IMG/VR virus record: IMGVR_UViG_3300012920_000028
Location: 8,805 to 72,804 of that record
Origin: a virus
Reading direction: 5' to 3' (one strand)
DNA length: 64,000 bases
Shown: one piece after another, positions 92 through 44,893 of the stretch
Position numbering within the stretch: the first letter of the stretch is position 1
How the letters are laid out: each line of letters opens with the position of its first letter
Notes under the pieces: model-generated
Databases searched by the model: none
What the model was told of the DNA's origin: nothing
The model's input: the letters and a program-made list of their open reading frames with translations, nothing else
Program-made: the position numbers and the translations under genes

Positions 92-553
92 ATGGAAACC
101 TTCACCTATTACCTGAGCATTGAAATCGAAGCCATGAACGAAGACTCCGCCGAGAACAAGTTGGAGGGTTTTCTCAAGGGTTTGGACCTGAAGAAAAATC
201 AGCACCTCACCCTTATGTCCCTCGAAGTCGGTGACGGAGAGGAGAACACCGAAGCCCCCGGAGACGACCAAGAGGAACCCGCGAAGAAATCCAAGAGCCG
301 ACCAACAATTTCTCTCCCAAAGGGGAAGGGTTCGGCCAAGTGGGAAGACGACTTCGATGACGCAGATTGGGACGAACTGGATGAAGAGCCCAAGCCAAAG
401 AAGGTCAAGGCGGAGTCCCTCGCTCTTGAAGACGACGATGAAGATTGGTGGGCTGACGACGAGGACGACGAGGACGACGACGACGACGACGGCCTACATC
501 AACCCGAAGACGACGAGGACGACGACATCGCCTCCATCATGAAGGGCTACTGA
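92..553 (+). CDS. Highly acidic protein with Asp/Glu-rich C-terminal half
   Basis: 153-aa ORF with long D/E tracts (DDEDDEDDDDDD). TTTTAAG box at about 51-57. Confidence 0.7.
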   Translation: METFTYYLSIEIEAMNEDSAENKLEGFLKGLDLKKNQHLTLMSLEVGDGEENTEAPGDDQEEPAKKSKSRPTISLPKGKGSAKWEDDFDDADWDELDEEPKPKKVKAESLALEDDDEDWWADDEDDEDDDDDDGLHQPEDDEDDDIASIMKGY

Positions 554-774
554 TGCGGCGCTCAATCCCTCTTCGAGTCATTGGCTACCTGATGTTGCTC
601 CAAGGAGTCCTTGAGTTCTATGTGGACGGTTCATCCCCCCGCTCCGTTCTCATTTTCGCCGTAGGCCTGTGGCTTCTTTCCCGGGCGTCGGTGCCCTTAA
701 CCGGCGAGGACCCTTCCCCGGTTCATGGACCGGCACTACCTGCAGGCGTCTCACCGCGTAATGGATGGAGATGA
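553..774 (+). CDS. Small putative membrane protein
   Basis: TGATG coupling to the upstream gene and two hydrophobic segments. The 3' end overlaps the next gene by 50 nt. Confidence 0.4.
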   Translation: MRRSIPLRVIGYLMLLQGVLEFYVDGSSPRSVLIFAVGLWLLSRASVPLTGEDPSPVHGPALPAGVSPRNGWR

Positions 775-961
775 AGTCGCTTCGCTTCTTGCCTCGCAAG
801 GCATCGAGATGAACCAGTTGCCTGCAATCTTCCTCGGCGACCCGGGTCTTCGAAACGAAGGAATCGTCGTCGCTGAAGGCGATGTTCTCGAAATCACTCG
901 CTACGCGACGGAAAAGTTCCCGGGCGGAACCCTTTATCGCCGTGTCGTCAAGGGTTGGTGA
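725..961 (+). CDS. rpo5: RNA polymerase subunit Rpo5 (RpoH / Rpb5 C-terminal domain)
   Basis: HYLQASHRVM...QLPAIFLGDP...EGDVLEITR...LYRRVV matches the Rpo5 pattern HxLvPkH...LPkI...DP...GDvikItR...YRxV. Length (78 aa) is typical. Confidence 0.88.
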   Translation: MDRHYLQASHRVMDGDEVASLLASQGIEMNQLPAIFLGDPGLRNEGIVVAEGDVLEITRYATEKFPGGTLYRRVVKGW

Positions 962-962
962 T

Positions 963-1406
963 GTGAAGTTGGAACTATGGACGGATGGCTCCTGCTTCAA
1001 GGACGACCCGACTGACTCCATCGGTCCCGCGGGCTCTGGAATCGTGTGCGTTGACGTCGATAGCGGCAAGATTCAGTTTCTCCTTGGAGAATACATCGGC
1101 ATTGAATCCAACAACTACGCGGAGTTCCGCGCAATCGAAATCGGGCTTGACGAAGTGTCTCGGCGCTATGAAGTGGACGAATCTTTCGACATTGAGGTCG
1201 TTTCGGATTCGAAAATGGCCGTGAACGTCCTTTCCGGCAACTGGAGCACGAACCTCCCTGAGTACCGAGAAATCACTGCCCGGATTCAGGAACTTGAGGA
1301 AGAACTTGGCGTCGTCATACAGTATTCGTGGGTCAAGGCACATGTAGGCGTTCACTTCAATGAACTGGCGGACTACCTCGCCTACAATTCGGCACGGGGG
1401 GACTGA
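963..1406 (+). CDS. rnhA: Ribonuclease HI
   Basis: WTDGSC, SNNYAEFRAI, VVSDSK and WVKAHVG..FNELADYLA give the catalytic D/E/D/H/D set. GTG start at 963 chosen. Confidence 0.92.
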   Translation: MKLELWTDGSCFKDDPTDSIGPAGSGIVCVDVDSGKIQFLLGEYIGIESNNYAEFRAIEIGLDEVSRRYEVDESFDIEVVSDSKMAVNVLSGNWSTNLPEYREITARIQELEEELGVVIQYSWVKAHVGVHFNELADYLAYNSARGD

Positions 1407-1407
1407 C

Positions 1408-4400
1408 GTGGTTATCGGAGAACCGGAAGAAGTCTTGGAGGAGGAAGACCTTTCCGTCACAGGCTTCTTTTGGTTTGTTCCCTACGATGAAATCCGGCAT
1501 ATGGAGCGTGGTGAGGTCACCTACGACTTCGACTTCCCCTCGCCGCGATTCGTCCCTTCAACGATGCAATCAGCACGCCGTTGGTTCACAACCTCTCCTG
1601 AAGCGGCAGGTCTCCGGACACGTGCCGACCACATGGTCGTGGTCAAGGTGTCGAACATCCCGTTCGACCCGGAGAGGTTCGATGAAGAGAAGGCGGAGGA
1701 TTGGCTTTCAGCAGACATCCGACATACGGGCGAAGAGACAGAACTGGCTGGCTACGTCGTCGAACCATTCCAAGCCACGCTCAAAGTCACGATGAAGAAC
1801 CTCTCATTCTTCAAAGAGACGAAGGAATGGGCGGCTGTTGAGGTGGGAATCCTTTCCCCGGAAGAAATCCGTAGCATGGCGAAGGTCAAGGTCACTGAAG
1901 AGCAAATCTACGCGAGCGACGAGATGTCCTCTCCTGTCGTTGGTGGCGTCGAAGACCTTCGAATGGGAACCTATGCAAAGGACACCCCTTGTGGAACGTG
2001 TGGCCTCACTTGGAACGAGGACTTCTTGAAATCGTGCCCCGGGCACTTCGGCTACATTTCTCTTGAGGTTCCGGTCCCGAATTGGTTCTATCTTGGTGGC
2101 TCGAAGAATCCTTCTCAGCAATCTCCGCTCCTTTACGCTCTCAACCACACTTGCATGCACTGCCAGCGAATCCTGCTGCCTGACTCCAAGGTTGAATTGT
2201 TGGAGCGATATGTGTTCAACGTGCGTAGCATGAACCTTCTGAATACGGCAGGTTATGACCTCGTTCGCGCCGAGGTTCGAACCTTGATGGACGAGCACCA
2301 CGGGGTCAAGAGCAGTGATTCCCGACCGAAGGAGTACGTCTGCCCCCACTGTGAGAAAGTCTCGCCGCAGGTGTCGTTCGCCCTCTCCGCTTTCAGTCGC
2401 TACAAGCACGTGTTCTACCCAACGAACCGTGAATACGACGACGAGAGCGATGATGTCGTCACCTACCCCTACGAGGACGTATTCCGCAGGCTCGAAGACA
2501 TCCCCGAAAGGGATTCGGCCGCACTCGGGTTCAGCGAGGGCTCGGTTCCTTCTCACATGTTCTTCACGGACTTGCCCGTTGCACCCGTGGTCACCCGTCC
2601 GCCTGCAACGACCCCTTCAGGTGCGTATGCTCCGAGTGACCTATCCGAGTTGTATGTGGCGGTCTTGCAGGTCAACAACAACATTCGTCGCCGTCGAACT
2701 GAACTCCGCGAGGACAAGGCGAAGAGGAATGCGATGTCACGTAGCCTGTTCAAAGCAGTGGCTCAGTTGATGACGGGTCAATCAAGTGGAATTGGCTCCG
2801 GAGGGATGAAAATAGGCATGGCCGCCAATGGGGCCATGACTCCTCGCAATCTTCGCGGGGTGTACGACCGCATCAAAGGTGTGGGCAAACAGAAGAACGA
2901 GATGAGGAGGAACGTGCAATCGAAAGTCGACGAGCACGTGGCTTATTCGGTAATCACCCCCGACCCCGCGCTTCAGATTGACGAAATCGGTGTTCCATAC
3001 CCTGTGTGCTTCGAATTGACGCGCCGCATCGAAGTCACCGAAGAGAACTATGACGAGATGCTCTCCTACGTGATGAACGGGGACCAAGAAGCGATTCCGA
3101 AGGGGAAGAAAACGAAGGACTTCGACTTAAGCCGCTACCCCGGTGCGAAGCGTGTGATTCGCGGCAACGGAACGGTGTCTTCACTACTGGAGCCAGCACG
3201 AGATTTCGGAGAGTCAGAACTCGATTTCGCCCTACGCCAAGCGAACTTCTTGGACCGGAAGTCAAACCTTCTGGTTGGGGACATCGTGGAGCGTCACCTT
3301 ATCCCCGGCGACGTTGTTCTCTTCACACGTGCACCTGCCCTTCACCGTCAGAACCTCATGGCTTTCCGTGTCGTCCCGGTCAAGACCCGGAGCCTTTCAT
3401 TCAACCCCTCAGTCTGCATTCCGTTCAATGCGGACTTTGACGGGGACGCCATGAGGATGTACGTTCTCCAGTCTGAGGAAGCAATCGAAGAGGCGCTCGA
3501 AACGATGCGCGTCGAGACACAGATGCTTCACTCTCGCTACGGCCGAACCTTCCTCACGTTCGACCAAGATGAAATCAGCGGCGGCTACCTCTTGACGTTC
3601 AAGAACGAGCCCGAAGCCGGGACACATCCGGAGAAACGGAGCGGATGGGGCTTTGACGACGACGGCTACCCGATTCTCAGTAAGGCACGTGTCCTGAACA
3701 TCCTTCAGGCCGCCTTCTCTCGTGACGAAGAAGGTTCACTCACCTACAGAACACGTTTCCCTCCGCCCATCACCAGCGGCCGATTCAAGGGGTGCTACCG
3801 TGGCCGTGACATCATCTCGATGTTCCTTCCACCGGGAATCAACGCACGCTATGAGAACCGAACCGGACAAGAAATCGTCATTCGGAATAGCGTCATTGGA
3901 CCGGGTGCCCTTGACGACAGGTTCTTCGGAACTAAGGCTGGTCTTCTTGCACCTGCTTTCATCTATCGCTACGGGTGGGAGGAAGGTCACCGCCTTCTTG
4001 CCGAGGTCACGAATGAAATGTCTCGTGTCGTCTTCTCAGCACACGTTGAGTACGGCTTCTCCCTCGGAATCGCTGACATCTCCTTCATTCGACCCGAGTC
4101 AAAGTCGGACAAGGAATACTTCGACTTGGCGGAGAAGGGCTTCAAGAATCAAGTGGACGAGAACGGACGGCCTATTCGGAGTCTGAGCCCTTACGTCTTC
4201 ATTGACGACGCTATGGATATGGTGGAGAGCATCATTCACGACATTGACCTGAAGTTCGAGGCGCGCAACATCGAGGCAATCAAGGACATCGACATTTCTT
4301 TCCTGAACTACGTGAACGAAAAGGGAGAGGAAAAGACCTTTGAGACGTTGAGCATCAACATGAAGGAGTTCGTTAAGGACCCAATTTTCGCGAAAGAAAA

Positions 4401-6186
4401 CGTAGTCCGTGCAATCACCAATGCGTTCAATGATTGGGTCATCGCCTTCATCAAAGCGAACCAAAAACCGACGGACGCTATGAACATCACATTGAACTCC
4501 GGTGGTCGCGGGAACCCGCTCCAACTCCGGCAGATGATTGGCTCGCTCGGGCAGCATCAATTGAACGGGCCGGGTCGTCCGAAGCACGGTTATAGCGCGA
4601 GGAAGGTCCTTTCCTGTTCACGGGACGACATGAACCCACGCGACCGTGGCTTCATCCGCACCTCCTACGCGAGAGGTCACGACCCCGATGGGTATTGGTT
4701 CGCCTCCACGGCCGGTATTCGTTCAACGATGGAATCTTCTCAGGGCGGAATCGCAAAGTCCGGCTACATGGAGCACAAGATGAAGCGGAACCTTGAGCAC
4801 CTCATGGTGGACGACAAGCGTCGGGTCATTGACCTTCGGTCAGGGACAATCGTTTCTCTTTCAGTCGGAGGAGACAATCTGCATGCGTTCCACCCACGCG
4901 GACCCGACAACAGCGACGGCCTCGATTTCGAAATCCAACCACTTCTCCTTGATTTTGAATGCAAACACGGGTTGAGCCTCTATGACTCGTGTGCCGAGTG
5001 CAGCAGCGGCACCCCTAACCTCCTCCCACGTGCCATCCTACCGGACAACATCAAGGCTCAAGTCGAAAAGGCAGTTGAGGGGAGAGAACTTGACGAAGAA
5101 TCGAAGAAGGGCTTCCGTGATTCGTTGCGTTCCTATTACAACACGTGTCTGATTCAAATTGGCGAAATGATTGGTTCCACAGGTGCGGCAAACCTCGGCG
5201 AACCGGCTACTCAGGCGGGACTTCGTGCGTTCCACGGTGGCGGTCAAGGAACGGTTCCGACCGTGGACAGGCTTGTGCAGGTGTTAGAACTCGTGAAAAA
5301 GAAGCAAGAGCAACCGCAAACGACGCTTCTCCTCAAAGATGACTACAACACCCGAGAGAACGCCGAGCGGCTTGCTTCTTTCTGCACGACCGTGAACTTC
5401 GAAGAGGTCATGGAGAAGGTCGAATACAACCCCGAGGAGTTCGAAATCGAAATCACCCTGAACATCGAAAGGCTGGAACTCTTCGAAATTGATGACGAAT
5501 GGGCGCGTCATACGCTCAAGAAGGTGTTCGAATCCGACGGCACTCGGAAGGTGACCTTCTTTGAAAGCCCAATCGCGAAGGTCCGATGCCGAGAAGACGC
5601 ACGTGACCTCCTCATCGCCCGACATATGCTCGGGAACATCCCGCTTTCGGGAATCAATGACTCCCAACTTGCCTTCGTTTATGACGACGGAGAGGGGCAA
5701 TACGGAGTGAGCATTCGTGGACCAATCAAAGGCAGCGATGCGGTGAATATCCCGAAGTTCTGGCAAGACATCGTGGACTTCATGAGTGAATACGTGGACC
5801 TCTCCAAGACCAAGTTCACCGACTCATGGATGGTTTACAACATTTACGGACTCGAAGCATCCCTCAACCATCTGTGCGAATCCATTTACGAGCAAATGAA
5901 CGGAATGGAAGGTGAGAAGGGGATTGGGGAACTGGATTATCGCTACATCCGGGTCATGGCTGACTACATGGGGATTTACGGCGAACCTATCGGACTCAAG
6001 AAATCCGGACATATGGTGAAGTTCAACAAGAGCCTTCTCGCTGCCCTCGGTGGTGAAGACCCGATGCTCGCCCTGCACGGTGCAACGGTCATGGGGAACT
6101 ATGATACGCTCAAGGGTCCGGTTGAGGCTATCGCCGCAGGCAAGCAACTCAACATTGGGGCACACTACCGTCGAAAGACGACATGA
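1408..6186 (+). CDS. rpo1: DNA-directed RNA polymerase largest subunit (Rpo1 A' and A'' in one chain, Rpb1/beta'-like) with N-terminal extension
   Basis: Clamp Zn motifs CGTCG...CPGHFG, CMHC, CPHC. Also VITPDP, RAPALHR, catalytic FNADFDGDAM, bridge helix KSGYMEHKM and trigger loop GEPATQAGLRAFH. GTG start at 1408 chosen. Confidence 0.95.
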   Translation: MVIGEPEEVLEEEDLSVTGFFWFVPYDEIRHMERGEVTYDFDFPSPRFVPSTMQSARRWFTTSPEAAGLRTRADHMVVVKVSNIPFDPERFDEEKAEDWLSADIRHTGEETELAGYVVEPFQATLKVTMKNLSFFKETKEWAAVEVGILSPEEIRSMAKVKVTEEQIYASDEMSSPVVGGVEDLRMGTYAKDTPCGTCGLTWNEDFLKSCPGHFGYISLEVPVPNWFYLGGSKNPSQQSPLLYALNHTCMHCQRILLPDSKVELLERYVFNVRSMNLLNTAGYDLVRAEVRTLMDEHHGVKSSDSRPKEYVCPHCEKVSPQVSFALSAFSRYKHVFYPTNREYDDESDDVVTYPYEDVFRRLEDIPERDSAALGFSEGSVPSHMFFTDLPVAPVVTRPPATTPSGAYAPSDLSELYVAVLQVNNNIRRRRTELREDKAKRNAMSRSLFKAVAQLMTGQSSGIGSGGMKIGMAANGAMTPRNLRGVYDRIKGVGKQKNEMRRNVQSKVDEHVAYSVITPDPALQIDEIGVPYPVCFELTRRIEVTEENYDEMLSYVMNGDQEAIPKGKKTKDFDLSRYPGAKRVIRGNGTVSSLLEPARDFGESELDFALRQANFLDRKSNLLVGDIVERHLIPGDVVLFTRAPALHRQNLMAFRVVPVKTRSLSFNPSVCIPFNADFDGDAMRMYVLQSEEAIEEALETMRVETQMLHSRYGRTFLTFDQDEISGGYLLTFKNEPEAGTHPEKRSGWGFDDDGYPILSKARVLNILQAAFSRDEEGSLTYRTRFPPPITSGRFKGCYRGRDIISMFLPPGINARYENRTGQEIVIRNSVIGPGALDDRFFGTKAGLLAPAFIYRYGWEEGHRLLAEVTNEMSRVVFSAHVEYGFSLGIADISFIRPESKSDKEYFDLAEKGFKNQVDENGRPIRSLSPYVFIDDAMDMVESIIHDIDLKFEARNIEAIKDIDISFLNYVNEKGEEKTFETLSINMKEFVKDPIFAKENVVRAITNAFNDWVIAFIKANQKPTDAMNITLNSGGRGNPLQLRQMIGSLGQHQLNGPGRPKHGYSARKVLSCSRDDMNPRDRGFIRTSYARGHDPDGYWFASTAGIRSTMESSQGGIAKSGYMEHKMKRNLEHLMVDDKRRVIDLRSGTIVSLSVGGDNLHAFHPRGPDNSDGLDFEIQPLLLDFECKHGLSLYDSCAECSSGTPNLLPRAILPDNIKAQVEKAVEGRELDEESKKGFRDSLRSYYNTCLIQIGEMIGSTGAANLGEPATQAGLRAFHGGGQGTVPTVDRLVQVLELVKKKQEQPQTTLLLKDDYNTRENAERLASFCTTVNFEEVMEKVEYNPEEFEIEITLNIERLELFEIDDEWARHTLKKVFESDGTRKVTFFESPIAKVRCREDARDLLIARHMLGNIPLSGINDSQLAFVYDDGEGQYGVSIRGPIKGSDAVNIPKFWQDIVDFMSEYVDLSKTKFTDSWMVYNIYGLEASLNHLCESIYEQMNGMEGEKGIGELDYRYIRVMADYMGIYGEPIGLKKSGHMVKFNKSLLAALGGEDPMLALHGATVMGNYDTLKGPVEAIAAGKQLNIGAHYRRKTT

Positions 6187-8875
6187 GGTAGTGTCGGAAA
6201 CCGGGAGTCAGGAGACGCTGGTCCCACCCGAGAGCATCATAGATGCCCTTTAGCGTCCCGTGAATGTGCGTCTTCGCGAGGGACTCCCAATCAATCGTGT
6301 ACTCCGCAAGTTCCTCTTCACGGCGGAATGCGATACGCCCGTTGCCCGGGATGACCGTCGGCCCGTCCTTGACGATGACCCACTTCACCTTGTCTCGCTT
6401 CGCGTATTCGTCCTCTTCGCTCTTCGCGAGGTACATGTTGTACCATAGCGCCCCCGACGAAAGCCAATAGTGCCCGTAGCACTTGTCGTCTTCGTTGAGG
6501 GTGTCTTGCTTCGGGCACGCGCCACAGTCGCAGACAATAGGCATTCCCCGCCAATCAACATGGTGCGGTAGGTGCTTCCTGAGCGTTTGTGCGGCGGTCA
6601 GTTCCTCAAGGTCAACCTCGCCGTCAAGGACGGCTTTCAGTCGCTTCTTGACCTTCTTCTGCACGACCTTTTCGGGGACCTTGTCGAAGAGGTCCATGAG
6701 AAGTCCGAGTTGTATGTCCGTTCCGAGAGAGGAAGTCGTCGTTCGCTTGGCCTGCATCCCTGACATCTTGAGACGAGCCCACGGTTCTTCTCGCATGTCG
6801 ATGTCGGCGACCTTGAATCCCTTCTTGTCGTCCCACACTTTCCGACCGGCATACATGCCCTTCACGTTGGCGAGGTAAAACCGGTCCATGATGACCTCAA
6901 GGTCAAGCGACATGGCGGTGGAATTGGTCCTCCCCTGCATTTCCTTTGTGATGTCCTTTCCGAGAGCCACCGCTTCGTCATGGACACGCTCGGCTTCCCA
7001 TTCGGAAGGGAAGACCACGAAGATTGAGTCCGTGTGTCCGTAAATGACGCGGAAACCGGCCTTCTCAGCCAACGCCTTCGCCGTGAGAAGGGCTTCACGC
7101 CCCCCAGCGGTGATTGAGGCAGCGACATCGCGGTCGAACCACGCGAACTTGTCGAAGGCCATGATACCGTACATGGACGCGCGCAGCCTCTTCACGCCGA
7201 GTTGCATAGCGTTCCACTTCGTAGCCGCCTCCTTGTCGTTCTTCGCTTCTGCTTCCTTGAGCAATGCCTTGTACTCGTCACGTTGTGTGTTCAAGCGGCG
7301 AACGATGGTAGGCAGGACACCTGTCGTGTCGGTTCGGAAGCGAACGCCACCATGCCCGACGCTATCGGTGGACAGGTGTTCCTGTCCTTCCCTGACTTTC
7401 GTTTCGGGACTGATGTTCTTTGCTTCCATGACGCTTGGGTATAGGCCCGCGTAATCGAGCATCCCGACGTTATCGTGCATACCAGCCGCATTGGTGTAGA
7501 CGTTGTCGTCTTCGGGGTCGCGTTCTTCGGGCTCCTCACCGGGGTGGAGGATGATTGCACCTTGAAGGTCGTCTTCAGCGTCACTCTCCTCACTGTAGGG
7601 GCGATACTTGGGGCGCCACCATGCTTCGCGATAGAACATGACGTTTCCGACACGGGATGCCTTCATGGTCGAGGGAAGTTGGCTACCGATGAGCGTCTGT
7701 TGAACCTTGTAGCCCTTGACGATGTTCCACTTCTCATCGAGCATGACGAGCAGTTCAACGTCGCGGATGTTGTAGCGGAGGAATTCGTCCCACGTGGCAT
7801 CGTAGTCCTTGTCGTACCATCCCGGGCTTGGGTTCTTCCCTTCCTTGAAATTGTCCCACGCTACCGCCTGAAGGCTCAATCCACCGGGCGGGTCTTGGTT
7901 CGTGGAGTCCTTGTACACGCGCTCATAGCACAACATGAGGTCGAGGGTATCAACACCCCGAATGGGGGCGTCAGTCACCTTGTAGCGGTGCCTGTTGCGA
8001 GGGTCCGGGTCAATCATGATTCCATAGGGTGAGAGGGAACCAGCGCCATAAACAGGCCTCGGGAACAGACCGTTCTCGCACTCCCCCGCCATGTCGTTCA
8101 TCAAATGGGGAATCCCGAGGCTTTCCATGCGATGATAAAGCGTCGGAAGGTCATACCCGGCACTGTTCCAGCCGGTCATGACGTCGAAGTCCATGGCGAA
8201 GAACCAATCACCGAATGCCTTCAGCATGTCGTACTCCGTGGTGAAGCGGTGTTCCGTACCCCATTCATGTCTGATGGAAGCCCTCGTCCAATTCGGGTGA
8301 CATCCAAAGGCGGTGTATTCCTTCGTGAAATTGGAGTACGCCGCGATGGAGTTGACCATCTGTGTGTCGTACCAAAGTCCCTCGTGAGTCACGCTCTTCA
8401 GCCACTTCATGCGCTCGGGGTCCGTGTCGCGGAACTGCAAGGCTTCGATGTCGAAATAGCAGACGTGATAGTCGAAGTCTTCGACCTCGATGTCGTTATG
8501 AATGAGGACGGCGTCTTCTTGAGGGAGAGAACCGCCCCACGTTGGCCCATAGTTGCGAAGGAAGAAGGACATGGCTCCACGAGTCACGCACTCGACCTTG
8601 TACAGGGGTTGCTTTTCGATGGACAACCCTTCGGGGGCCACGGAATGAACAAGGTCACTATCGAGGAGGAAGTCAATGGCTTCGCTCGCGTAGTCGAAGT
8701 CAGGCACATTCTTGCCCGGAAGAGCACGGAATGAAGAGGGCTGGATGTAAAACGTGGGGTATTCGTCATAGAAGTCCACAACGCGCACACCGTCCTTACG
8801 GTAGCGAACTGCTACGCGAGAACCGTCTTCCATTCGCCACTTCCCTTGTACCTGCTCGCACACGCTGATGTTCAT
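6149..8875 (-). CDS. polB: Family B DNA polymerase with 3'-5' exonuclease
   Basis: Exo motifs FDIE, GWNSAGYD, YNIRD. Polymerase motifs DYAGLYPS, KRLRASMYG, YGHTDS. ATG at 8875 overlaps the upstream stop. Confidence 0.95.
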   Translation of the reverse strand: MNISVCEQVQGKWRMEDGSRVAVRYRKDGVRVVDFYDEYPTFYIQPSSFRALPGKNVPDFDYASEAIDFLLDSDLVHSVAPEGLSIEKQPLYKVECVTRGAMSFFLRNYGPTWGGSLPQEDAVLIHNDIEVEDFDYHVCYFDIEALQFRDTDPERMKWLKSVTHEGLWYDTQMVNSIAAYSNFTKEYTAFGCHPNWTRASIRHEWGTEHRFTTEYDMLKAFGDWFFAMDFDVMTGWNSAGYDLPTLYHRMESLGIPHLMNDMAGECENGLFPRPVYGAGSLSPYGIMIDPDPRNRHRYKVTDAPIRGVDTLDLMLCYERVYKDSTNQDPPGGLSLQAVAWDNFKEGKNPSPGWYDKDYDATWDEFLRYNIRDVELLVMLDEKWNIVKGYKVQQTLIGSQLPSTMKASRVGNVMFYREAWWRPKYRPYSEESDAEDDLQGAIILHPGEEPEERDPEDDNVYTNAAGMHDNVGMLDYAGLYPSVMEAKNISPETKVREGQEHLSTDSVGHGGVRFRTDTTGVLPTIVRRLNTQRDEYKALLKEAEAKNDKEAATKWNAMQLGVKRLRASMYGIMAFDKFAWFDRDVAASITAGGREALLTAKALAEKAGFRVIYGHTDSIFVVFPSEWEAERVHDEAVALGKDITKEMQGRTNSTAMSLDLEVIMDRFYLANVKGMYAGRKVWDDKKGFKVADIDMREEPWARLKMSGMQAKRTTTSSLGTDIQLGLLMDLFDKVPEKVVQKKVKKRLKAVLDGEVDLEELTAAQTLRKHLPHHVDWRGMPIVCDCGACPKQDTLNEDDKCYGHYWLSSGALWYNMYLAKSEEDEYAKRDKVKWVIVKDGPTVIPGNGRIAFRREEELAEYTIDWESLAKTHIHGTLKGIYDALGWDQRLLTPGFRHYLMSSFDGSVPQC

Positions 8876-9837
8876 AGTACCAACCTCTCTTCCAGCCGGA
8901 CCACGGACCCATTCGCCCGATAGTCGATAACACGGTGATATTGGAGCCACAAGAGCGGTGTGTTGTGGTTCTCAAGGTAAATACGACGAGCCTTCCCATA
9001 TGCGCCCCATTCTTCGACCGACATGCGGTGCTTTTCCGCAAGGAAAGACCGGATTTCTAACGGCGGGATGGTTTCACCAACCGGATAGCGGGAGATGAAG
9101 ACCCATAGTGTCCGGCAAGCCTTGAGGTTCACTACGGAGGTGCTTTCGGACCGTTCTGCGCTATCAAGGGACTTTCTCCACACCGTCAAACGGACTTCCC
9201 CGTCCATCTCAGTGACGTGAAGGTAGCGTTCCTTCTTCTCGCCCCTATGGACAAGACGCGCTCGGTCAAACGGCGTTTCCTCACGCACCTCCGGCTCCGG
9301 TTCGGGGAGCACGACAGGTGTCGGCTTTGGTTCCGCTTTTGGTTTCGGCGCATTGCCGAAAGAGGACAAGACGGATTGTCCGGGCGCGATTTCAGGAACC
9401 TTCTCTTTGGGCGGAGCCAATTCCTTGAGCGCGTCGAGAATGTCCTTCCGCTTGCACTTCCTTACGCACCCGAAGCCACCATCCTCTTTCACTTGTAGGT
9501 GATTCTTTCCGTTTCCGTCAGCCCCTTGCTTCGCACAAGAGGGACATTGCGCGGAATACCAGCCATTCCCTGACTTCCGGAGATTGACGAGGCTCTCCCT
9601 TGCTTCCCATACAGGGTTCCCACCGTCCGCCATGAGGAAAGGGAGAGGTTCACCGGAGTTGTGGGCGTGAAGGAGGACTTCGAGCCTCCCCATTTCCTTC
9701 TCGGTCTCGAACAACACGTGTCCATCTTCGATGCGCTGGTGCCTGAGCGCGTAGTCGGAGCGAACCTTCGAACCAATCAGTTCGAGGTACAGTGAAACGG
9801 GGACTCTCATGGAACCGGAAAGCGAATCATCCGGCAC
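8872..9837 (-). CDS. Protein with primase-type Zn-binding domain, Pro-rich linker and possible C-terminal winged helix
   Basis: AQCPSC...NHLQV...FGCVRKC pattern. Translationally coupled to polB. Confidence 0.55.
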   Translation of the reverse strand: MPDDSLSGSMRVPVSLYLELIGSKVRSDYALRHQRIEDGHVLFETEKEMGRLEVLLHAHNSGEPLPFLMADGGNPVWEARESLVNLRKSGNGWYSAQCPSCAKQGADGNGKNHLQVKEDGGFGCVRKCKRKDILDALKELAPPKEKVPEIAPGQSVLSSFGNAPKPKAEPKPTPVVLPEPEPEVREETPFDRARLVHRGEKKERYLHVTEMDGEVRLTVWRKSLDSAERSESTSVVNLKACRTLWVFISRYPVGETIPPLEIRSFLAEKHRMSVEEWGAYGKARRIYLENHNTPLLWLQYHRVIDYRANGSVVRLEERLVL

Positions 9838-10519: not shown

Positions 10520-10905
10520 AAAATCATCTCCTCGCGATAGGGTTTCTTGGCATCAACGAAAATCCATGAGCGTTGGAGAGAGTCCGGAAGTTTCCCTGCT
10601 TTCTTGGCGAAGAAGTCGTCCTTGGTTTCGGAGAAGAGGACCTCGATGTAGGGTAGGACATGTGTTGGTGCGACAATATCCGGACGTGTTCCACACTTGA
10701 GACGGGCTTCCGTGCAGAAAGGGACGTCATGCTCAAGAAGAGTGAGGGCGACCTCGCAGACGCGGAGATTGTGCTCATACGTGTTCCCCTTGCTCAATTT
10801 GATGACCCCCCAATGAGGTTTGAACATAGGGTCGAGATGTTCACGCGACCAATCGTTCAGTTCTTTCTGCATTTTCGAGGAGTACCTCAAAGAATACCCT
10901 CCCAC
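10516..10905 (-). CDS. Putative PD-(D/E)XK-fold nuclease-like protein
   Basis: TEARL..GTRPDIV....YIEVLFSE. Confidence 0.55.
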   Translation of the reverse strand: MGGYSLRYSSKMQKELNDWSREHLDPMFKPHWGVIKLSKGNTYEHNLRVCEVALTLLEHDVPFCTEARLKCGTRPDIVAPTHVLPYIEVLFSETKDDFFAKKAGKLPDSLQRSWIFVDAKKPYREEMIF

Positions 10906-11765
10906 TCAAGGTCGTGAAGGTTTCCGTCTTGGTCGTAGTACTTCCCCTCATAGAAGAGCCGCTTCGAGACGATGTTCCCTACTACCGAAGCGGTCCAGCC
11001 GCTCGTTTCATTGCGAGCCGAAACGCCTTCCGCATTGAGAGTCTTCGCGATTGAGGCACGCGACATGCCGTCTTCGTGCATCGCGAACACACGTCGGACG
11101 GAATCCGCTTCCCGCGGCTCTATTTCGAGGACTCCCTTCAGTTCGGGGTCCCCTCTCCCGTCGGCTTCGTCAGCACTTCGTTTGTAGGCCGAGCGATACC
11201 CCATAGGAGGCCGACCGACGTGGCGCCCCGCGTTCTTCTTCCCCTTCAACCCCGAGGCGGTCCTCTCGCTGATGATGTCCGCTTCCATCTGAGCGACAGA
11301 AATCATGATTCGGAAGATGAGCATTCCCATGGCGGTCGTCGTGTCGATTTGTAGGTCACGGAAAACGAAGTCCTTCTCGGCTCGCTGAAGGGTCTCCGCC
11401 CATTCACCAGCATTTCGGACGTTTCGATGGAATCGGTCCATTTTTGCCGCGATAACGACGTCCCAGTTCTCCATTTCGCTCATCATGCGCTGGTATTCGG
11501 GGCGTTGGGTGTTCGTCCCGCTGAACCCTTCATCTCGGTATTCCTCGACGACCTCCCACCCCTGAGCGGCGCAATAGGCACGGCATTCGCGAAGTTGCTG
11601 CTCAATGGAGGTCTCGGACTGGGTTCCTCCGTCTTTGTCGCTTGTGGAGATGCGAGCGTAGATTCCAGCCTTCCTTGCAGAAGGGGCCGTTGTGAAAAAG
11701 GGGGAAAGTGAAAGAAGCAAGGTCAATGAGGCATACCCAAAGAGGGCGAATAGGGATTCAATCAT
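10887..11765 (-). CDS. Serine recombinase (resolvase catalytic domain plus recombinase DNA-binding domain)
   Basis: IYARIST (catalytic Ser), SIEQQ, DEGFSG..RPEYQRM, KMDRFHRN, ISERT..GL, GRPPMGY. Confidence 0.92.
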   Translation of the reverse strand: MIESLFALFGYASLTLLLSLSPFFTTAPSARKAGIYARISTSDKDGGTQSETSIEQQLRECRAYCAAQGWEVVEEYRDEGFSGTNTQRPEYQRMMSEMENWDVVIAAKMDRFHRNVRNAGEWAETLQRAEKDFVFRDLQIDTTTAMGMLIFRIMISVAQMEADIISERTASGLKGKKNAGRHVGRPPMGYRSAYKRSADEADGRGDPELKGVLEIEPREADSVRRVFAMHEDGMSRASIAKTLNAEGVSARNETSGWTASVVGNIVSKRLFYEGKYYDQDGNLHDLEWEGIL

Positions 11766-12246
11766 GGCTTGATTCCTCACCCTTTGTCCCTAAAGGGACG
11801 ACCATAAAGGTGCCGAGAGGTAAAGGGTCCGGTTTAGGTTAGGAATCGGGGCATGGTCCTTTGTGGTTGAACCGTTTAAGTCTCAAGAATCCACAGATTT
11901 CGACGCAAAGGAGGGGTTCTAAGGACCGGCTTTTCTGAACCCCTACATTTCCCCATTTTTCCAAGCAAACCGCCCTCGGTGGCCGCGATTCTCCCTCCCA
12001 AACATATGTTGCAGAAGGGGCCTTTCTCACAACGGGGGTTAGGAACCGTTAAGAGCCGGCCATCTCACACGAGCGAGTATGGAACCTTGGGGATGGCTCT
12101 TCATCATCATCATGCTCGGACTCGGCGCGTGGTTTTATGCCATCTCGTCGATGAACGCCTATGACCCACACAGGCCCATTGTGCCTGAACCGTGGAACCT
12201 CGGGGATGAAGAGGAATGACCGAAGAAACGAATGAGGTGAAGAAGA

Positions 12247-25218: not shown

Positions 25219-25947
25219 TCAGAAGCCACCTTGCATGCCGGGTTGCGTCATCCCTTGCTGCATGGGTGCTTGCTGGGCAGGTGGAAGTCCGAGAGAACCA
25301 CGGATGAGGGAGGCGCCGAAGCCGCCAAGGGTCGCGCCCATTCCGGGTCGCTGAGGCTGGCCCATCATCTGCTGCTGCATCATCTGCTGCTGCATCATCT
25401 GTTGCTGCTGCATTTGGTTCATCATCATGTTCTGCTGGTGACCACCCATCATTTGCATTGCGTTCATGTCGGCCTGAGAGACCTGCATCTGCATTTGCTG
25501 AAGGGGAATGACCTTCGAAATCTGCATGTCGATGTTCTCCTGCGTAATTGAAGCGTAATCCCCGGCTTCCGCATTGACCGAGTATGCTCCACCACGCTCC
25601 GTAGCGGAAACAAGGGCTCCGCTCTTGAAGAAGGCATACAACTCCTTCTTCACGATGAGAGAGAGCAGGTTCGCGAACTCGGTCATGAACTGAGGGTATG
25701 AGAGCATGAAGAGCGCGACCTGATTCGGATGCGCGGCCATGAGCCTGTAAAGGAGCGCGACTTGGTCCTCGTTGTTCATGCCGTTCGTCATGGCGTCAAT
25801 CTGTCCCATGGCGGCTTGACCTGCCATAGCCGAAAGACCGGAGGTCTGTGCGGCGTTCGCTACATTTCCGAGCATCTGCTGTTGCCCGTTGGAGAGCCCA
25901 TTCGGCATGAGCGACTGTTGACTTTGATTGTTCCCGAAAAGACCCAT
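25219..25947 (-). CDS. Gln/Met/Gly-rich low-complexity protein
   Basis: QQQMM repeats (15-bp units at about 25365-25425) and a central helical domain. Confidence 0.75.
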   Translation of the reverse strand: MGLFGNNQSQQSLMPNGLSNGQQQMLGNVANAAQTSGLSAMAGQAAMGQIDAMTNGMNNEDQVALLYRLMAAHPNQVALFMLSYPQFMTEFANLLSLIVKKELYAFFKSGALVSATERGGAYSVNAEAGDYASITQENIDMQISKVIPLQQMQMQVSQADMNAMQMMGGHQQNMMMNQMQQQQMMQQQMMQQQMMGQPQRPGMGATLGGFGASLIRGSLGLPPAQQAPMQQGMTQPGMQGGF

Positions 25948-25996
25948 CTTCAGAACCCCCTATTCGACCCACGTTCACCTTCGTCTTGAACATTCC

Positions 25997-27510: not shown

Positions 27511-27514
27511 TACA

Positions 27515-27733
27515 TCACCCGAGAATCCAACCGATGATACCTGCGCTATCGGTGGTCTTCATGATGACGTAGTCGGTCACGGCCGTGACCAAGACTCCGA
27601 CACCTGTCGAAATGGCTCCCCAAAACATGTATTTGATTCGGATATACCGCATCGCCCAAGTCTGACCAAGGTGGGTCGTTTTCATCAACGATTCCATTTG
27701 AGCGTCTTGCTCGTCATTGAAGATGATGCCCAT
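27515..27733 (-). CDS. Small membrane protein
   Basis: One transmembrane helix. GGTGAG RBS. Confidence 0.65.
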   Translation of the reverse strand: MGIIFNDEQDAQMESLMKTTHLGQTWAMRYIRIKYMFWGAISTGVGVLVTAVTDYVIMKTTDSAGIIGWILG

Positions 27734-27817
27734 TCTCTCACCTATGTTGGAAGCAAGCCTCACCTTCGGTCGTCTTCCTCTTGCATGGTTCGCCCTTGGC
27801 CGTCATGGCCCCACATC

Positions 27818-28549: not shown

Positions 28550-28550
28550 T

Positions 28551-28721
28551 TCAGGTCCGACAACCAATTTTCGCCACCTCCAGTAGTCCAAGTATTTCGA
28601 CGCGGTCGGCGGGTTCCTTCGTGAAAAGTTCCACGCCTTCCGGGCCTTCGACAATGAGCAAGAACCTCACCCCTGCTTCACGCAGGGCGATGATTCCTTC
28701 TTGAGCCTTCTCGATGTCCAT
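28551..28721 (-). CDS. Small hypothetical protein
   Basis: 56 aa, packed behind the thermosome gene. Confidence 0.5.
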   Translation of the reverse strand: MDIEKAQEGIIALREAGVRFLLIVEGPEGVELFTKEPADRVEILGLLEVAKIGCRT

Positions 28722-28725
28722 TTCA

Positions 28726-30264
28726 TCACTCCCCGAACTCGTCAGGCTCCTTCGCAATGATGATGTTGTCGATGCGCAGGAGGAGCGAAGCCGTCGCTGT
28801 TGCGCTCTCAAGCGCGCTCTTCACCACCTTGAGGGGTTCAACCACGTTCTCTTCCGCCATATCCACCACGCCGCCGGTATAGACGTTCAAACCGGCATTC
28901 TTTGCGCCTTCCGCGTGAGCCTTCCTCAGTTCACGGAGCGTCGCAATTGGCTGAAGTTGTCCACTGTTCTCAGCGAGGGTGAGCGGAATGATTTCGAGAG
29001 CGTCAGCAAAAGCCTCGACCGCGAGGGATTCAAGGCCGCCCACGCTCGCGGCGTAGGTCCGGAGGTGTTGAGCCATTTCGACTTGAGAAGCACCGCCCCC
29101 GGCGAGAACCTTCCCCTCCTTTCGAGCGACGTGCACCACGCCGATAGCGTCGTCCATGGCGCGGCTGATTTCCTCGGCAGTCTGCTGGGTAGGGGCACTG
29201 ACGACGAGAGAAACCGCATTGGCGTTAGGGGTGTCCTTGAGAATGAAGAAGCCACGCTGACCTGCGCTGGCACTCACTTCCTCAATGCTTCCACACGTGC
29301 CGAGGTCTTCGACCTCAAGGTCTTCGAGACCGGAAACGATGAGAGCACCCGTAGCGTCGGCCACAGCCTCAAGATTGGAAGCAGCGCAGCGACGGCACGC
29401 AATGATGCCGTGGCGCGCGAACAGTTCCGCAAGGGCTGGGTTGATGTCCTTTGACGCAAGAACCACGCTTGCTCCGAGGCCGAGAATGTGGTCGGCCATT
29501 CCCTGCAAGAGATTGCGCTGGTTCGCACGGAAGGCCTCAGCGTCCTGCGCCGTGTTGAATTGAAGGTTCGTTCCCTTCGCCATTGCCGGAAGGTCGAGAG
29601 CACCGTCCACGAGCGCGATGGAGGCATTCTCAATGTCCGAAGGCATGGCGTTGTGCATCTTCACCTGACCGATGACAATTCCGTTCGGAGCGTAAGAGTC
29701 CGTGACGGGTGAACCGTAGCGAGGAATGATGTTGATTGAGCCCGGGGAAGCATTCTCCGTCGCCTCCACGCACAGGACTGCGAGATGGTCTTTCGACTCC
29801 TCAGCAGACTTCCCCGTCATGGCGGTCTTCGCCACTTCGAGAAGGTAGTCTTCCGCAGGAAGGGTGAGCGTTTCGGCAACCTCCTGACACTTCTTCAAGG
29901 CCAGATGGTAGCCGCGAACAATGGTCGTCGGGTGGACCTTCTTCGCGATGAGGTCCTCCGCTTGCTTCAGGAGTTCACCTGTGATGACGATTGCTGACGT
30001 CGTTCCGTCGTAGCACTCCTCTTCCTGCGTGCGCGCGACCTCGACCATCATGTGTGCCGTGGCGTGGGTGAAATTGGTTTCCTTGAGAATGGTGGCCCCG
30101 TCGTTCGTCACTACCGTACGACCGCTCCGGTCAACGAGCATCTTGTCCATTCCCATAGGGCCGAGGGTCGAACGGACCAATTCGGCGACAAACTTGCCGA
30201 TTCCGATGTTGACCTCTTGGGCCGTCTGCGTCTTCTGCTGCTTGGCGTCTGTGGCTTGACTCAT
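28726..30264 (-). CDS. Group II chaperonin (thermosome subunit)
   Basis: STLGPMGMDKML, TNDGATIL, YDGTTS, VHPTTI, AGGGA, VVEPLKV, LLRID. Confidence 0.96.
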   Translation of the reverse strand: MSQATDAKQQKTQTAQEVNIGIGKFVAELVRSTLGPMGMDKMLVDRSGRTVVTNDGATILKETNFTHATAHMMVEVARTQEEECYDGTTSAIVITGELLKQAEDLIAKKVHPTTIVRGYHLALKKCQEVAETLTLPAEDYLLEVAKTAMTGKSAEESKDHLAVLCVEATENASPGSINIIPRYGSPVTDSYAPNGIVIGQVKMHNAMPSDIENASIALVDGALDLPAMAKGTNLQFNTAQDAEAFRANQRNLLQGMADHILGLGASVVLASKDINPALAELFARHGIIACRRCAASNLEAVADATGALIVSGLEDLEVEDLGTCGSIEEVSASAGQRGFFILKDTPNANAVSLVVSAPTQQTAEEISRAMDDAIGVVHVARKEGKVLAGGGASQVEMAQHLRTYAASVGGLESLAVEAFADALEIIPLTLAENSGQLQPIATLRELRKAHAEGAKNAGLNVYTGGVVDMAEENVVEPLKVVKSALESATATASLLLRIDNIIIAKEPDEFGE

Positions 30265-37632: not shown

Positions 37633-37662
37633 AGGTTCTTTGAGCGGTGTGCGTTGCACGCT

Positions 37663-43244: not shown

Positions 43245-43710
43245 CCTCGATGAGAAGTGAGGGCGTATCGAAAAGGATGCTCGCCACGTTCGTCAGGTAG
43301 TTCTCAAACCCCGCGGCTTCGGTGAAATTGGAAATGCCGTCTTCTTCGAACTGCTCCGTCATAGAAGCGAGCAGTTGTGGCTCCGTCACGGCGGGAATCG
43401 CGAACATCACGACCGTTGATTGCCCCCATTCTTCGAGGTTATACCCATGCACAGTTTCTCCTTCCACGAATGGGAAGGAATGAATGTCCAAGTGCACGTT
43501 TGCTTTGGGGAGCAATTCGAAGAACTTCTTTGTGAAGGTAGTGTCGTTCGGGCGGTTAAGGTCGATGACCTCGCGGGGGATTTCCCCGACGAGACTTTCG
43601 AACTCAAGACCTTCTTCCGTGAGCGCCCTCTCAAGAATCGGGCGGATGATGGTTGAGCCGAAGTCATACTGTCCGCTTGGCGCGGCGTGGGGGAAGGTCA
43701 GGAGAATCAT
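43129..43710 (-). CDS. Zn-dependent hydrolase, N-formylglutamate amidohydrolase / M14 peptidase-like fold
   Basis: TFPHA...D, R..IDLNR, LDIHSF, LLIEV. Confidence 0.7.
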   Translation of the reverse strand: MILLTFPHAAPSGQYDFGSTIIRPILERALTEEGLEFESLVGEIPREVIDLNRPNDTTFTKKFFELLPKANVHLDIHSFPFVEGETVHGYNLEEWGQSTVVMFAIPAVTEPQLLASMTEQFEEDGISNFTEAAGFENYLTNVASILFDTPSLLIEVNEEDDDAYSAVAAALVEGLRSFLSVGPSMTASSGTLP

Positions 43711-44426
43711 CTGTTCAGCCGCAGACGCTTGACCGATTTTACGCTACCGCCAGCGTTCCTTGGTTTCTCGTCACCAATCGGCCGACACTTGTTCCATGTT
43801 CCTGTCCCGTGCGTACTGTAGTACCAGTACTTGTATTCGGGGCTCGCGAAGAAGGGAACGTGTTCAACGTAGTGTTCGAGGTTGCGGCTCTTGAGGTAGT
43901 CGGGGCGGTCGTCAATCCTGAACACTACCTTGTTCTCGGATTGGCTCCATACCGTTTCCGACATCAACTGAAGACGTTGAGTCATTCCGATACCGACGAT
44001 TCCCTTTCCGGCGCCGACGAGCCACAGTTGCTCGATGCCGTCGTTGGTCCCCTTTCGGACGAAGGTCTGGATTTCGTCAATGGCGATGATTCGACGAATC
44101 CGCTTGAAACCCGGCTTATTGGAAACCATGAACACACGTTCGATGACCTTATTCAGCGCCGCTACTCTCTCTTCCTTTCCTACGGGTGGGTGGAAGACAA
44201 TGGAAGGTGTCTTGGAAAGGAGAGCGGCATAGACCTCCATTGGAGTCTTGCACACACGTCCGAGGTCCGTGATTTCTGCCTTGGGGTCCACAAAGATTGT
44301 GTGAAGGCCGTCCTTCTGAAAACGCTTGAACATCTCGGAGACGAAATACGTCTTGCCGCTGCGGGTCATTCCGAGAACTGCGGTATGTCGCTTCTTCATG
44401 TTCTCATAGAGCGCGTTTGAGACCAT
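43707..44426 (-). CDS. FtsK/HerA-superfamily genome packaging ATPase (A32/P9-like)
   Basis: Walker A GMTRSGKT, FVDPK, Walker B IAIDEIQ, MTQR and SQS..KVVF in a stand-alone ~240-aa protein. Confidence 0.85.
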   Translation of the reverse strand: MVSNALYENMKKRHTAVLGMTRSGKTYFVSEMFKRFQKDGLHTIFVDPKAEITDLGRVCKTPMEVYAALLSKTPSIVFHPPVGKEERVAALNKVIERVFMVSNKPGFKRIRRIIAIDEIQTFVRKGTNDGIEQLWLVGAGKGIVGIGMTQRLQLMSETVWSQSENKVVFRIDDRPDYLKSRNLEHYVEHVPFFASPEYKYWYYSTHGTGTWNKCRPIGDEKPRNAGGSVKSVKRLRLNR

Positions 44427-44893
44427 GCTACAACACCAGCACCAACGGCGAGAAGACCAAAGAGACGGCTCGGAGGGACGGCCATAAAGGACTCGGCGTA
44501 GGCCGGGAAGTTCTCCTTGAACCGTTGGCGAAGGTTGTTGTTGTCGGTCACCCGAAGCCATGCTACCGGGTTCATGACGTCGGGGTTCACGCCGCCGGTG
44601 TGCTTCAAGCCGAGAGCGTGACCGTATTCATGGGCGAGCAGGTCGAGGTTCCCCTTCGCACCGCTTCGCACCGTAATGGTGTTTCCAATGGTGACCCCTT
44701 GAGGGAAGTAGCCACGGTTCAAGATGTTGTAAGAGGCACGCGCCATGTCCCCTGCGTACCATTCCTGAATCTCTCCACTCGCGTGAATCGCGTTCACGTA
44801 TTGCGACCAATGTGCTTCGCTGAGGGTAGCAATCCGGACACCATCCTCGCCTACCGCGATAACGCGGAAAGAAGAGAACGATTCCGGCGTCAT
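44396..44893 (-). CDS. Metzincin-type Zn metalloprotease with C-terminal membrane anchor
   Basis: HEYGHALGLKH plus Met-turn (DVMNP). C-terminal LFGLLAVGAGVVAW. Confidence 0.85.
   Translation of the reverse strand: MTPESFSSFRVIAVGEDGVRIATLSEAHWSQYVNAIHASGEIQEWYAGDMARASYNILNRGYFPQGVTIGNTITVRSGAKGNLDLLAHEYGHALGLKHTGGVNPDVMNPVAWLRVTDNNNLRQRFKENFPAYAESFMAVPPSRLFGLLAVGAGVVAWSQTRSMRT

Follow-up and report, generated by a model that had tools for sequence, protein, structure and literature searches.

Rpo1 and Rpo5 without Rpo2: RNA polymerase subunit genes of an archaeal-type, virus-like DNA element from marine waters

What could a virus-like element do with the largest catalytic subunit of an RNA polymerase if it encodes no second one? 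The question is raised by a 64-kb stretch of DNA (the window, by which we mean this whole stretch) that covers positions 8,805-72,804 of the 72,804-base IMG/VR record IMGVR_UViG_3300012920_000028 (G000), a linear record with a CheckV completeness estimate of 52%. The window encodes an unsplit but diverged archaeal-type Rpo1 and, close upstream of it, a homologue of Rpo5. To our knowledge, both catalytic subunits are present in all viruses known to have genes for a two-barrel RNA polymerase, and in the literature searched we found no description of a virus that has Rpo1 but no Rpo2, or that replaces the largest catalytic subunit. The explanation to which we lean, with some reserve, is that the viral Rpo1-Rpo5 module assembles with host Rpo2 and other host subunits into a chimeric polymerase.

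A search of 5.8 billion proteins with Rpo1 recovered a clade of 43 marine metagenomic clusters (638-3,529 bits, 29-94% identity), below which the score falls sharply to archaeal RpoA (at most 311 bits, 24-27% identity over full-length matches). Three other clade records are present in IMG/VR, and the whole-record searches reported here cover the four clade records G000-G003, one of which (G003) is closed:

G001: 110 kb, 79% complete, Rpo1 51% identical to that of the window
G002: 65 kb, Rpo1 33% identical to that of the window
G003: 140,336 bases, direct terminal repeats class in IMG/VR, CheckV 100%, Rpo1 28% identical to that of the window

The operon and the parts of Rpo1 on which the argument turns are the following (positions in the window; residue numbers are those of the listed Rpo1 open reading frame, ORF, and aa stands for amino acids):

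725..961 (+): rpo5, homologue of the RpoH/Rpb5 C-terminal domain, 78 aa (Pfam Rpb5_C, E 2e-9, 37.5 bits, cut-off 23.5)
963..1406 (+): RNase H (type HI), between rpo5 and rpo1; listed from ATG 882, likely start GTG 963
1408..6186 (+): rpo1, unsplit (A' and A'' in one chain), diverged; likely GTG start, 1,592 aa
1408..1827 (+): clade-specific N-terminal domain of Rpo1, aa 17-156 of the listed ORF, about 140 aa
2923..2946 (+): KVDEHVAY, a diverged motif of what we take to be the switch 2 type, aa 522-529; archaeal and eukaryote-like rows have KRVDFSAR
3427..3447 (+): NADFDGD, catalytic metal-binding motif, aa 690-696
4960..5001 (+): CxH...CxxC (CKH...CAEC) at the A'/A'' junction, aa 1201-1214
5209..5223 (+): trigger-loop start TQAGL within GEPATQAGLRAFHGGG, aa 1284-1288; archaeal and eukaryote-like rows have TQ(M/L)TL

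The rpo1 ORF as listed extends over 1360-6186(+), from ATG 1360, with 1,608 aa and no internal stop. The DNA reading and the clade consensus, which opens with MVIxEP at residue 17 of the listed ORF, suggest that translation of Rpo1 starts instead at GTG 1408, one base past the RNase H stop at 1406. Likewise, RNase H probably starts at GTG 963, two bases past the Rpo5 stop at 961. With gaps of 1-2 bases, the three genes therefore appear to be packed as one unit, and all four records show the same gene order, rpo5 - RNase H - rpo1. At the matching place each record has an Rpb5_C domain above the Pfam cut-off; against the NCBIfam RpoH equivalog, Rpo5 of the window reaches 37.9 bits, under the cut-off of 83. 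The RNase H ORF matches Pfam RNase_H (E 1e-12) and the NCBIfam RNase HI models (E 5e-16 to 1e-7, all below cut-offs), and its homologues occupy the same place in G001, G002, and G003 with 36-77% identity. A small hydrophobic ORF precedes and slightly overlaps rpo5 in the window (553-774 (+), 73 aa) and in G003 (L100 1725-1991 (-), 88 aa), the two sequences being unlike each other.

Structure prediction supports binding of viral Rpo5 to viral Rpo1. The predicted complex of Rpo5 with Rpo1 residues 700-1608 scored 0.77, compared with 0.00 for the best of three controls; in the benchmark of this score, 58 of 80 solved complexes and 2 of 110 mismatched pairs reach that mark. Contact agreement between model runs was at least 96%, and the predicted local distance difference test (pLDDT) value of the partner was at least 84. 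The two proteins are a textbook pair, and the pass may only reflect likeness to solved polymerases.

Judged by its residues, Rpo1 is real and looks active and catalytically intact. Five Pfam domains are present above their cut-offs, with the core domains in order (Rpb1_1, E 2e-38; Rpb1_2, 4e-36; Rpb1_3, 2e-12; Rpb1_4, 8e-8; Rpb1_5, 6e-19), and Rpb1_6 and Rpb1_7 were not found by Pfam. In an alignment of 20 clade sequences that are 31-94% identical to the window's Rpo1, residues N690, A691, D692, D694, G695, and D696 of the catalytic motif are invariant in all 20, and position 693 is F or Y. The same invariance holds for the clamp zinc sites (C211/C214/C226/H229 and C265/C268/C328/C331), for T1284, Q1285, A1286, L1288, R1289, F1291, and H1292 of the trigger loop, and for C1201, H1203, C1211, and C1214 at the A'/A'' junction, where archaeal and eukaryote-like rows have no cysteines. 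Relative to 12 fused archaeal Rpo1 rows, the protein carries inserts of 15-31 aa at 576-590, 750-770, 912-942, and 978-999. A first-pass annotation, made by a model from the DNA letters and their ORFs, had claimed an unsplit Rpo1 with an intact NADFDGD, the replacements of KRVDFSAR by KVDEHVAY and of TQMTL by TQAGL, a CKH...CAEC segment joining A' to A'', an N-terminal extension of about 140 aa, and an Rpo5 upstream; all of these are borne out, the gene between Rpo5 and Rpo1 being RNase H.

The first Rpb1 domain begins at aa 157 of Rpo1. The extension before it (residues 1-148) is absent from the 12 fused archaeal rows and conserved in 39 clade rows, with W38, A72, and G131 invariant in the clade. 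An AlphaFold2 model of residues 1-166, built from these 39 aligned rows (pLDDT 75.1), shows a compact alpha/beta domain over approximately residues 30-152. Foldseek returned nothing at E<=0.001 for this model, and the best VIA-align match, 2aua_B (Z 5.3, root-mean-square deviation (rmsd) 4.3, 90 aligned residues), lies in a range deemed uninformative. At least 30 of the 50 VIA-align rows listed are, by title, proteins of the ADP-ribosyltransferase fold (PARPs, Tpt1, DarT, Arr, and bacterial toxins), and the weak Foldseek list holds the same kinds of protein. No triad of the H-Y-E or R-S-E type was recognized in the domain: there is no invariant His, Tyr, or Glu, and some rows have Lys or Asp in place of the candidate Glu135. 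The domain possibly has an ADP-ribosyltransferase fold, which we offer as a lead only.

To ask where Rpo1 comes from, we aligned the A' region of 55 rows over 844 columns and inferred a tree (IQ-TREE in its quick mode, LG+C20 with posterior mean site frequencies (PMSF)). It took in 12 of 44 clade sequences and 43 other rows, namely 23 archaeal rows, 8 unlabelled rows with Rpb1_6 or Rpb1_7, and 12 IMG/VR rows mostly named as giant-virus metagenome-assembled genomes (MAGs); an Asgard locus (L191) had no Rpo1 ORF and was excluded. Support comes from the SH-aLRT (Shimodaira-Hasegawa-like approximate likelihood-ratio test) only, and the tree has no bacterial outgroup, no named Pol I/II/III rows, and long branches. 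The clade comes out as monophyletic with a support of 100, its stem measuring 0.93 and a further 0.47 leading up to the node where the others join; the remaining rows split into archaea (96) and eukaryote-like plus giant-virus rows (98). In this unrooted quick tree the clade nests in neither group, and internally it is about as deep as the archaeal rows are. An origin of Rpo1 by capture from Poseidoniaceae was rejected, as joining the clade with three Poseidoniaceae-type rows costs 39.4 log-likelihood units (approximately unbiased test, p-AU 0.0016).

By its sequence scores, too, the protein is of archaeal type without being orthodox. Among solved structures it comes closest to archaeal Rpo1N (266 bits, 4qiw_A), then to Pol III (236) and Pol II (211). 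Among NCBIfam models A' is best (E 4e-118, 395.7 bits versus a cut-off of 819), and A'' gives 107.2 bits versus 420.65; the archaeal RpoA'/RpoA'' equivalog cut-offs are thus not reached, and Rpo1 falls outside the 23 archaeal rows of the tree. In a more tentative reading, the clade, which in the tree is deep, monophyletic, and outside both the archaeal and the eukaryote/giant-virus groups, would be an old viral lineage of Rpo1.

The second catalytic subunit was sought in all four records by several routes. Six-frame Pfam searches found neither Rpb2_6 nor (at E<=1) Rpb2_7 in any of them, while the control for each domain matched 14 of 14 known genomes. A hidden Markov model of five archaeal Rpo2 sequences, run with all filters off on 1,898 ORFs of at least 59 aa from the four records, came no lower than an E of 0.082. 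Comparison by hhalign of 45 families built from 77 ORFs of at least 350 aa reached a probability of 27.9% for Rpo2 at best, and at most 2.65% for the others; the best match (G003 68005-69063) was rejected as a zinc ribbon only, over 39 columns. A Pfam scan of ten large G003 ORFs identified an MCM helicase, an AAA ATPase, and a NUDIX-HAD protein and no Rpb2, with 7 of the 10 having no Pfam match. As Rpo1 is easily detected by the NCBIfam A' model, an equally diverged Rpo2 should be visible.

The other transcription genes are similarly sparse. Rpb6, RNA_pol_L (Rpb3/11), and TBP were each found in none of the four records, and no TFIIS-type ribbon scored above cut-off in them. TFB occurs in one record, G002 (C1:51846-52778, L193/L194; two cyclin repeats, E 6e-26 and 9e-24), directly upstream of PolB; G000, G001, and the closed G003 lack it, the matching place in the window included. 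The lineage encodes no Rpo2 and no assembly-platform subunits, and therefore it cannot build a polymerase alone. This leaves without support the central proposal of the first-pass annotation, a virus with its own multisubunit RNA polymerase and transcriptional autonomy; the search that it called for, covering Rpo2, TBP, and TFB, yielded only the TFB of G002. It had also named the lack of an Rpo2, and an Rpo1 nested on a short branch among host sequences, as outcomes that would count against it: the former is what the records show, and in place of the latter the clade has a long stem. What stands of its interpretation is an archaeal-type virus-like element with Rpo1 and Rpo5, and what falls is the autonomous polymerase, so that the interpretation is partly supported overall.

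Starting from the genes, their conservation and synteny, and the absence of Rpo2, we infer assembly with host subunits, the identity of the host, and an effect on promoter choice. After infection, the viral Rpo1-Rpo5 pair would join host Rpo2, Rpo3/10/11/12, and the remaining host subunits to give a chimeric polymerase. The surfaces of this chimera that contact DNA and factors, namely the switch-2-type motif, the bridge helix, and the N-terminal domain, would be viral, and they would redirect transcription to the genes of the element. More tentatively, and with rather less confidence, one may picture a virus that swaps the catalytic heart of the host polymerase for a subunit of an old Rpo1 lineage, with an N-terminal domain that may bind or modify a nucleotide, an RNA end, or a host factor.

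Several points weigh against a chimeric polymerase. The whole-genome searches cover four clade records. An additional DNA molecule, not linked to the one seen here, could carry Rpo2, and the tandem repeats in which the terminal repeat of G003 is embedded can mislead assemblers. The identity of Rpo1 to any archaeal Rpo1 is only about 25%, and it does not come from the presumed host group; because of this identity and the rejected Poseidoniaceae origin, its fit to host Rpo2 is not self-evident. Motifs that contact nucleic acids are altered (KRVDFSAR to KVDEHVAY, DGDEMN to DGDAMR), and the bridge helix has a one-residue insertion and many changes. Positions next to the invariant residues thus depart from all cellular rows; given these changed motifs, Rpo1 activity that is altered or lost has to be allowed for. 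Comparison of the thermosome encoded in the window does not identify the host of the element: in prokaryote genomes, even the 80 best-matching loci do not exceed 44% identity over most of the length, and they are scattered across many archaeal phyla, so that naming a host from them was rejected. Finally, no RNA run is among those listed as holding the stretch.

These altered motifs also bear on an explanation that we consider unlikely, in which the pair does not transcribe at all. Rpo1-Rpo5 could act as a decoy for host Rpo2 or initiation factors, or could have a role in replication (a primer or an R-loop) together with RNase H and PolB. An RNase H inside the operon in all four records and a PolB as the next gene would suit such a role, as would the changes in the DNA-contacting motifs and NCBIfam scores for A', A'', and RpoH that are far below the equivalog cut-offs. 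A decoy, however, is hard to reconcile with catalytic, zinc-binding, and trigger-loop Q/L/H residues that stay unchanged throughout a clade reaching down to 31% identity. Priming, for its part, would require RNA synthesis, and two-barrel polymerases need the second barrel for that too.

The window might also be a fragment or chimera of an archaeal chromosome, or a megaplasmid in place of a virus; we judge this improbable. No tRNA or Rfam family was found in the 64-kb window, whose GC content is 53-60% throughout. Contigs carrying the 43 clade Rpo1 clusters do not exceed 139,454 bases, whereas the archaeal matches reach megabase contigs. In the closed genome, G003, the first 55 bases equal the last 55, within tandem repeats at both ends (L083 1-190, L199). 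Across these ends runs the gene order polyprotein, metalloprotease-like gene, ATPase, 193-aa gene, then 204-, 294-, 314-, and 408-aa genes, which the window and G001 show without interruption. In a second study, two runs contain 0.86-0.88 of the sampled words of the window's operon, and the runs holding operon words are all marine, seawater, or estuary metagenomes; the DNA is thus not a one-off assembly. A cellular chromosome was rejected on the grounds of the missing tRNA and Rfam matches, the clade contigs that end at about 140 kb, and the closed genome, and a chimera is countered by a gene order shared among four records and by the recurrence in the second study. Together with the 72.8-kb length of the IMG/VR record, these observations support an extrachromosomal, virus-like DNA, as the first-pass annotation had supposed.

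Other genes of the element with a recognized family include:

6149..8950 (-): family B DNA polymerase (PolB), the next gene after rpo1 and convergent with it; Pfam DNA_pol_B, E 3e-34, plus an exonuclease domain
10887..11780 (-): serine recombinase / resolvase; Pfam Resolvase, E 8e-38
28726..30264 (-): thermosome-type group II chaperonin; Pfam Cpn60_TCP1, E 4e-141
43707..44561 (-): FtsK/HerA-type P-loop ATPase, candidate genome-packaging ATPase; Pfam DUF87/HerA, E 2e-6

A plasmid gains some credit from a report that magrovirus group D, to which we return below, is enriched in the cellular size fraction, with a plasmid-like element suggested (Xu et al., 2023; PMC10160649, in the part available), and from the fact that no capsid protein is proven in the element. 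On the other side stands a conserved block with the ATPase, which matches a phage-packaging profile, together with beta-rich proteins, a basic repeat protein, and proteases; this is suggestive only. The ATPase matches phrog_2666 "terminase large subunit" at E 2.5e-18, has no solved relative better than E 0.007, and has homologues 48-78% identical in all three relatives. Downstream of it (minus strand, lower window coordinates) lie a retropepsin-like protease, the basic repeat protein, and four beta-rich proteins that are conserved in all four records, and a metalloprotease-like gene overlaps its upstream end. Pfam scans of the window ORFs found no HK97 capsid, portal, or large terminase.

One candidate structural protein is a conserved protein of 314 aa, with 51 representatives among 1.84 billion proteins and a C-terminal part that recurs at the end of longer proteins. 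Its model has a pLDDT of 66.9, and Foldseek gave nothing at E<=0.001. The best VIA match, a chain of Sulfolobus polyhedral virus 1 (Z 4.9, rmsd 4.2, 141 aligned residues), is weak; many single jelly-roll capsid proteins are among the weak VIA rows. No family was found for it in Atlas, and PHROGs gave nothing for 9 of the 10 element proteins tried. The ATPase and the beta-rich block would be compatible with the tailless particle that the first-pass annotation inferred, without being proof of it. Against 50,697 phage records, the ATPase had no match and Rpo1 no close one (best 25% identity over 41% of the length, a Mollyvirus record). For this uncultured element, the most likely identity is that of a virus with some 110-140 kb of DNA that corresponds to the published "magrovirus group D".

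The informational genes support an archaeal-type assignment: by sequence comparison, the A' model and Rpo1N are the best matches of Rpo1, the chaperonin scores higher as a thermosome than as CCT (NCBIfam thermosome_alpha 487.9 bits, cut-off 450; best CCT model 326), and the isolates with the nearest PolBs are tailed haloviruses, at 23-25% identity. The NCBIfam match of PolB, to a model of the "DNA polymerase II" type with E 2e-40, stays under its cut-off. The archaeal-type, virus-like character claimed by the first-pass annotation is therefore retained.

Could the lineage encode a complete polymerase after all, with a second catalytic subunit too diverged, split, or fused to be seen? Some jumbo phages and crAss-like phages have cryptic or extremely diverged RNA polymerase subunits, and such divergence in phages lends the idea some plausibility. 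Room for a cryptic partner exists in the many large ORFs without a family, including the seven unmatched G003 ORFs and window ORFs 53964-56615, 58106-61687, and 22927-25209, which have no confident Pfam match. Nevertheless, with Rpo1 itself only moderately diverged, its partner should be similarly visible, and the unfiltered model search, the hhalign comparison, and the six-frame searches for Rpb2 domains all came back without it. We therefore hold a hidden Rpo2 to be quite improbable. Least probable of all is a eukaryotic large DNA virus, a relative of giant viruses or mirusviruses: a core set of Rpb1, Rpb5, PolB, and an A32-like (FtsK/HerA) ATPase, a conserved small GTPase-like operon, and DUF5824 and DUF7831 in a large modular protein may recall one, but the clade (12 rows, support 100) stands apart from the 20 eukaryote-like and IMG/VR giant-virus rows, Rpb1_6 and Rpb1_7 are lacking, solved structures of archaeal Rpo1N match best, the chaperonin belongs with the thermosomes and not with CCT, the nearest PolBs among isolates are those of haloviruses, the ligase is of the non-homologous end joining (NHEJ) type with no recognizable capping enzyme, and there is no Rpb2, which giant viruses carry along with Rpb1. 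The link to giant viruses drawn in the first-pass annotation lacks support from the Rpo1 tree, as the clade does not join their rows there.

Further genes of the window include two N6/N4 methylases, a PD-(D/E)XK nuclease, and very large modular proteins, one of which carries DUF5824 and DUF7831. Within the ATPase block, the basic repeat protein (41782-42849 (-)) has many repeats of the RRKAPARRKTT type followed by a hydrophobic Gly/Ala-rich tail, and it may serve to compact DNA or to tether it to a membrane; a longer ORF on the opposite strand (41518-42897) looks like a shadow of this gene. A 204-aa protein (38581-39195 (-)) is 86-98% identical across records whose Rpo1 identity falls to 28-51%. 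Neither Pfam nor PHROGs has a family for it, and in Atlas it has 30 matches at about 0.97, in clusters labelled mostly viral. Overlapping it and two other minus-strand genes (36457-37401 and 37663-38547) is a 657-aa ORF (37216-39189 (+)), probably a shadow ORF of GC-rich DNA.

Three more regions are shared by all four records. Beside the thermosome, four to five genes (25219-28654 (-)) are kept with 38-83% identity, among them one for a 244-aa protein with a faint GTP_EFTU-type P-loop match. A 200-aa protein (31069-31671 (-)) has two CxxC pairs and is 58-74% identical; it gave only weak zinc-ribbon matches, and its profile matched no solved structure at E<=10. Our impression by eye is of a second ribbon resembling that of TFS/TFIIS but lacking the acidic pair. 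A 1,135-aa protein (50560-53967 (-)) is an otherwise unknown sequence with an ATP-dependent DNA ligase domain of the NHEJ type at residues 467-748 (NCBIfam E 5e-9; the Pfam ligase C-terminal match is weak). A capping enzyme was considered for this protein and rejected, since it has the ligase domain only and no solved relative. The MCM helicase and a classical AAA ATPase of G003 (L087 13789-16194 (-) and L086 2143-4206 (+)) are encoded outside the part of that genome covered by the window.

Returning to the chimeric virus-host polymerase, it would, if true, represent a third strategy beside the complete viral enzyme and the small modifiers of the host enzyme. The clade, being deep, monophyletic, and not derived from the presumed host group, bears on the place of viral lineages in the evolution of RNA polymerases, and the element bears on the nature of "magrovirus group D", left open since 2017. 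Archaeal polymerases can be rebuilt from recombinant subunits, and a chimeric enzyme is therefore directly testable.

How does the element compare with what is already known? "Group D" scaffolds were described from Tara Oceans with a DNA polymerase, thermosome, resolvase, and RNA polymerase A; in the text available, they came without a closed genome or a morphogenetic block, their nature was left open, and one sentence dealt with the polymerase gene (Philosof et al., 2017; PMC5434244). That such elements carry an RNA polymerase A gene has thus been in print since 2017. Later accounts, as far as the portions available extend, report no structural genes in group D, enrichment in the cellular fraction, and plasmid-like elements as a suggestion, and rank it, for some marine and brackish waters, with the most abundant groups of magroviruses (Xu et al., 2023; PMC10160649), or describe it as lacking a major capsid protein (MCP; PMC11706807). 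Magrovirus PolBs have been printed as nearest to halovirus PolBs (PMC10160649; PMC7544198), and the available part of Kazlauskas et al. (2020; PMC7544198) contains nothing on an RNA polymerase A gene of magroviruses. With its PolB, thermosome, resolvase, and RNA polymerase A, the window fits group D, a match by gene content and not by named group D sequences; both are of marine origin, and in neither was a caudoviral capsid, portal, or terminase recognized, apart from the match of the window's ATPase to phrog_2666 with its "terminase large subunit" label.

By sequence, the closest solved counterparts of the pair are the archaeal RpoA'/A'' and RpoH of Thermococcus, Pyrococcus, and Sulfolobus (4qiw, 8cro, 2pmz). 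The domains come in the same order, and the catalytic motif, the zinc sites, the bridge helix, and the trigger loop are shared; Rpo1 of the window differs in an identity of only about 25%, a fused chain, the N-terminal domain of about 140 aa, the inserts, and the Cys/His junction motif. Where archaeal operons have rpoB after rpoH, the window has RNase H.

Among viruses, Nucleocytoviricota and jumbo phages (phiKZ-like, AR9) encode both catalytic subunits and hence an autonomous enzyme. The window resembles them in carrying a virus-encoded homologue of two-barrel polymerases, with an Rpb5 by the Rpb1 and with PolB and an FtsK/HerA ATPase in the same genome. Unlike them, its lineage has no Rpo2 in any of the four records, and its Rpo1 does not group with giant-virus rows. 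Viruses without a two-barrel polymerase of their own re-aim the host enzyme with small factors, such as Alt/Mod ADP-ribosylation and AsiA of T4 and the sigma factors of phages. The outcome proposed here would be the same, a host enzyme re-aimed without a complete viral polymerase; in the lineage of the window, however, it is the catalytic largest subunit itself that would be replaced.

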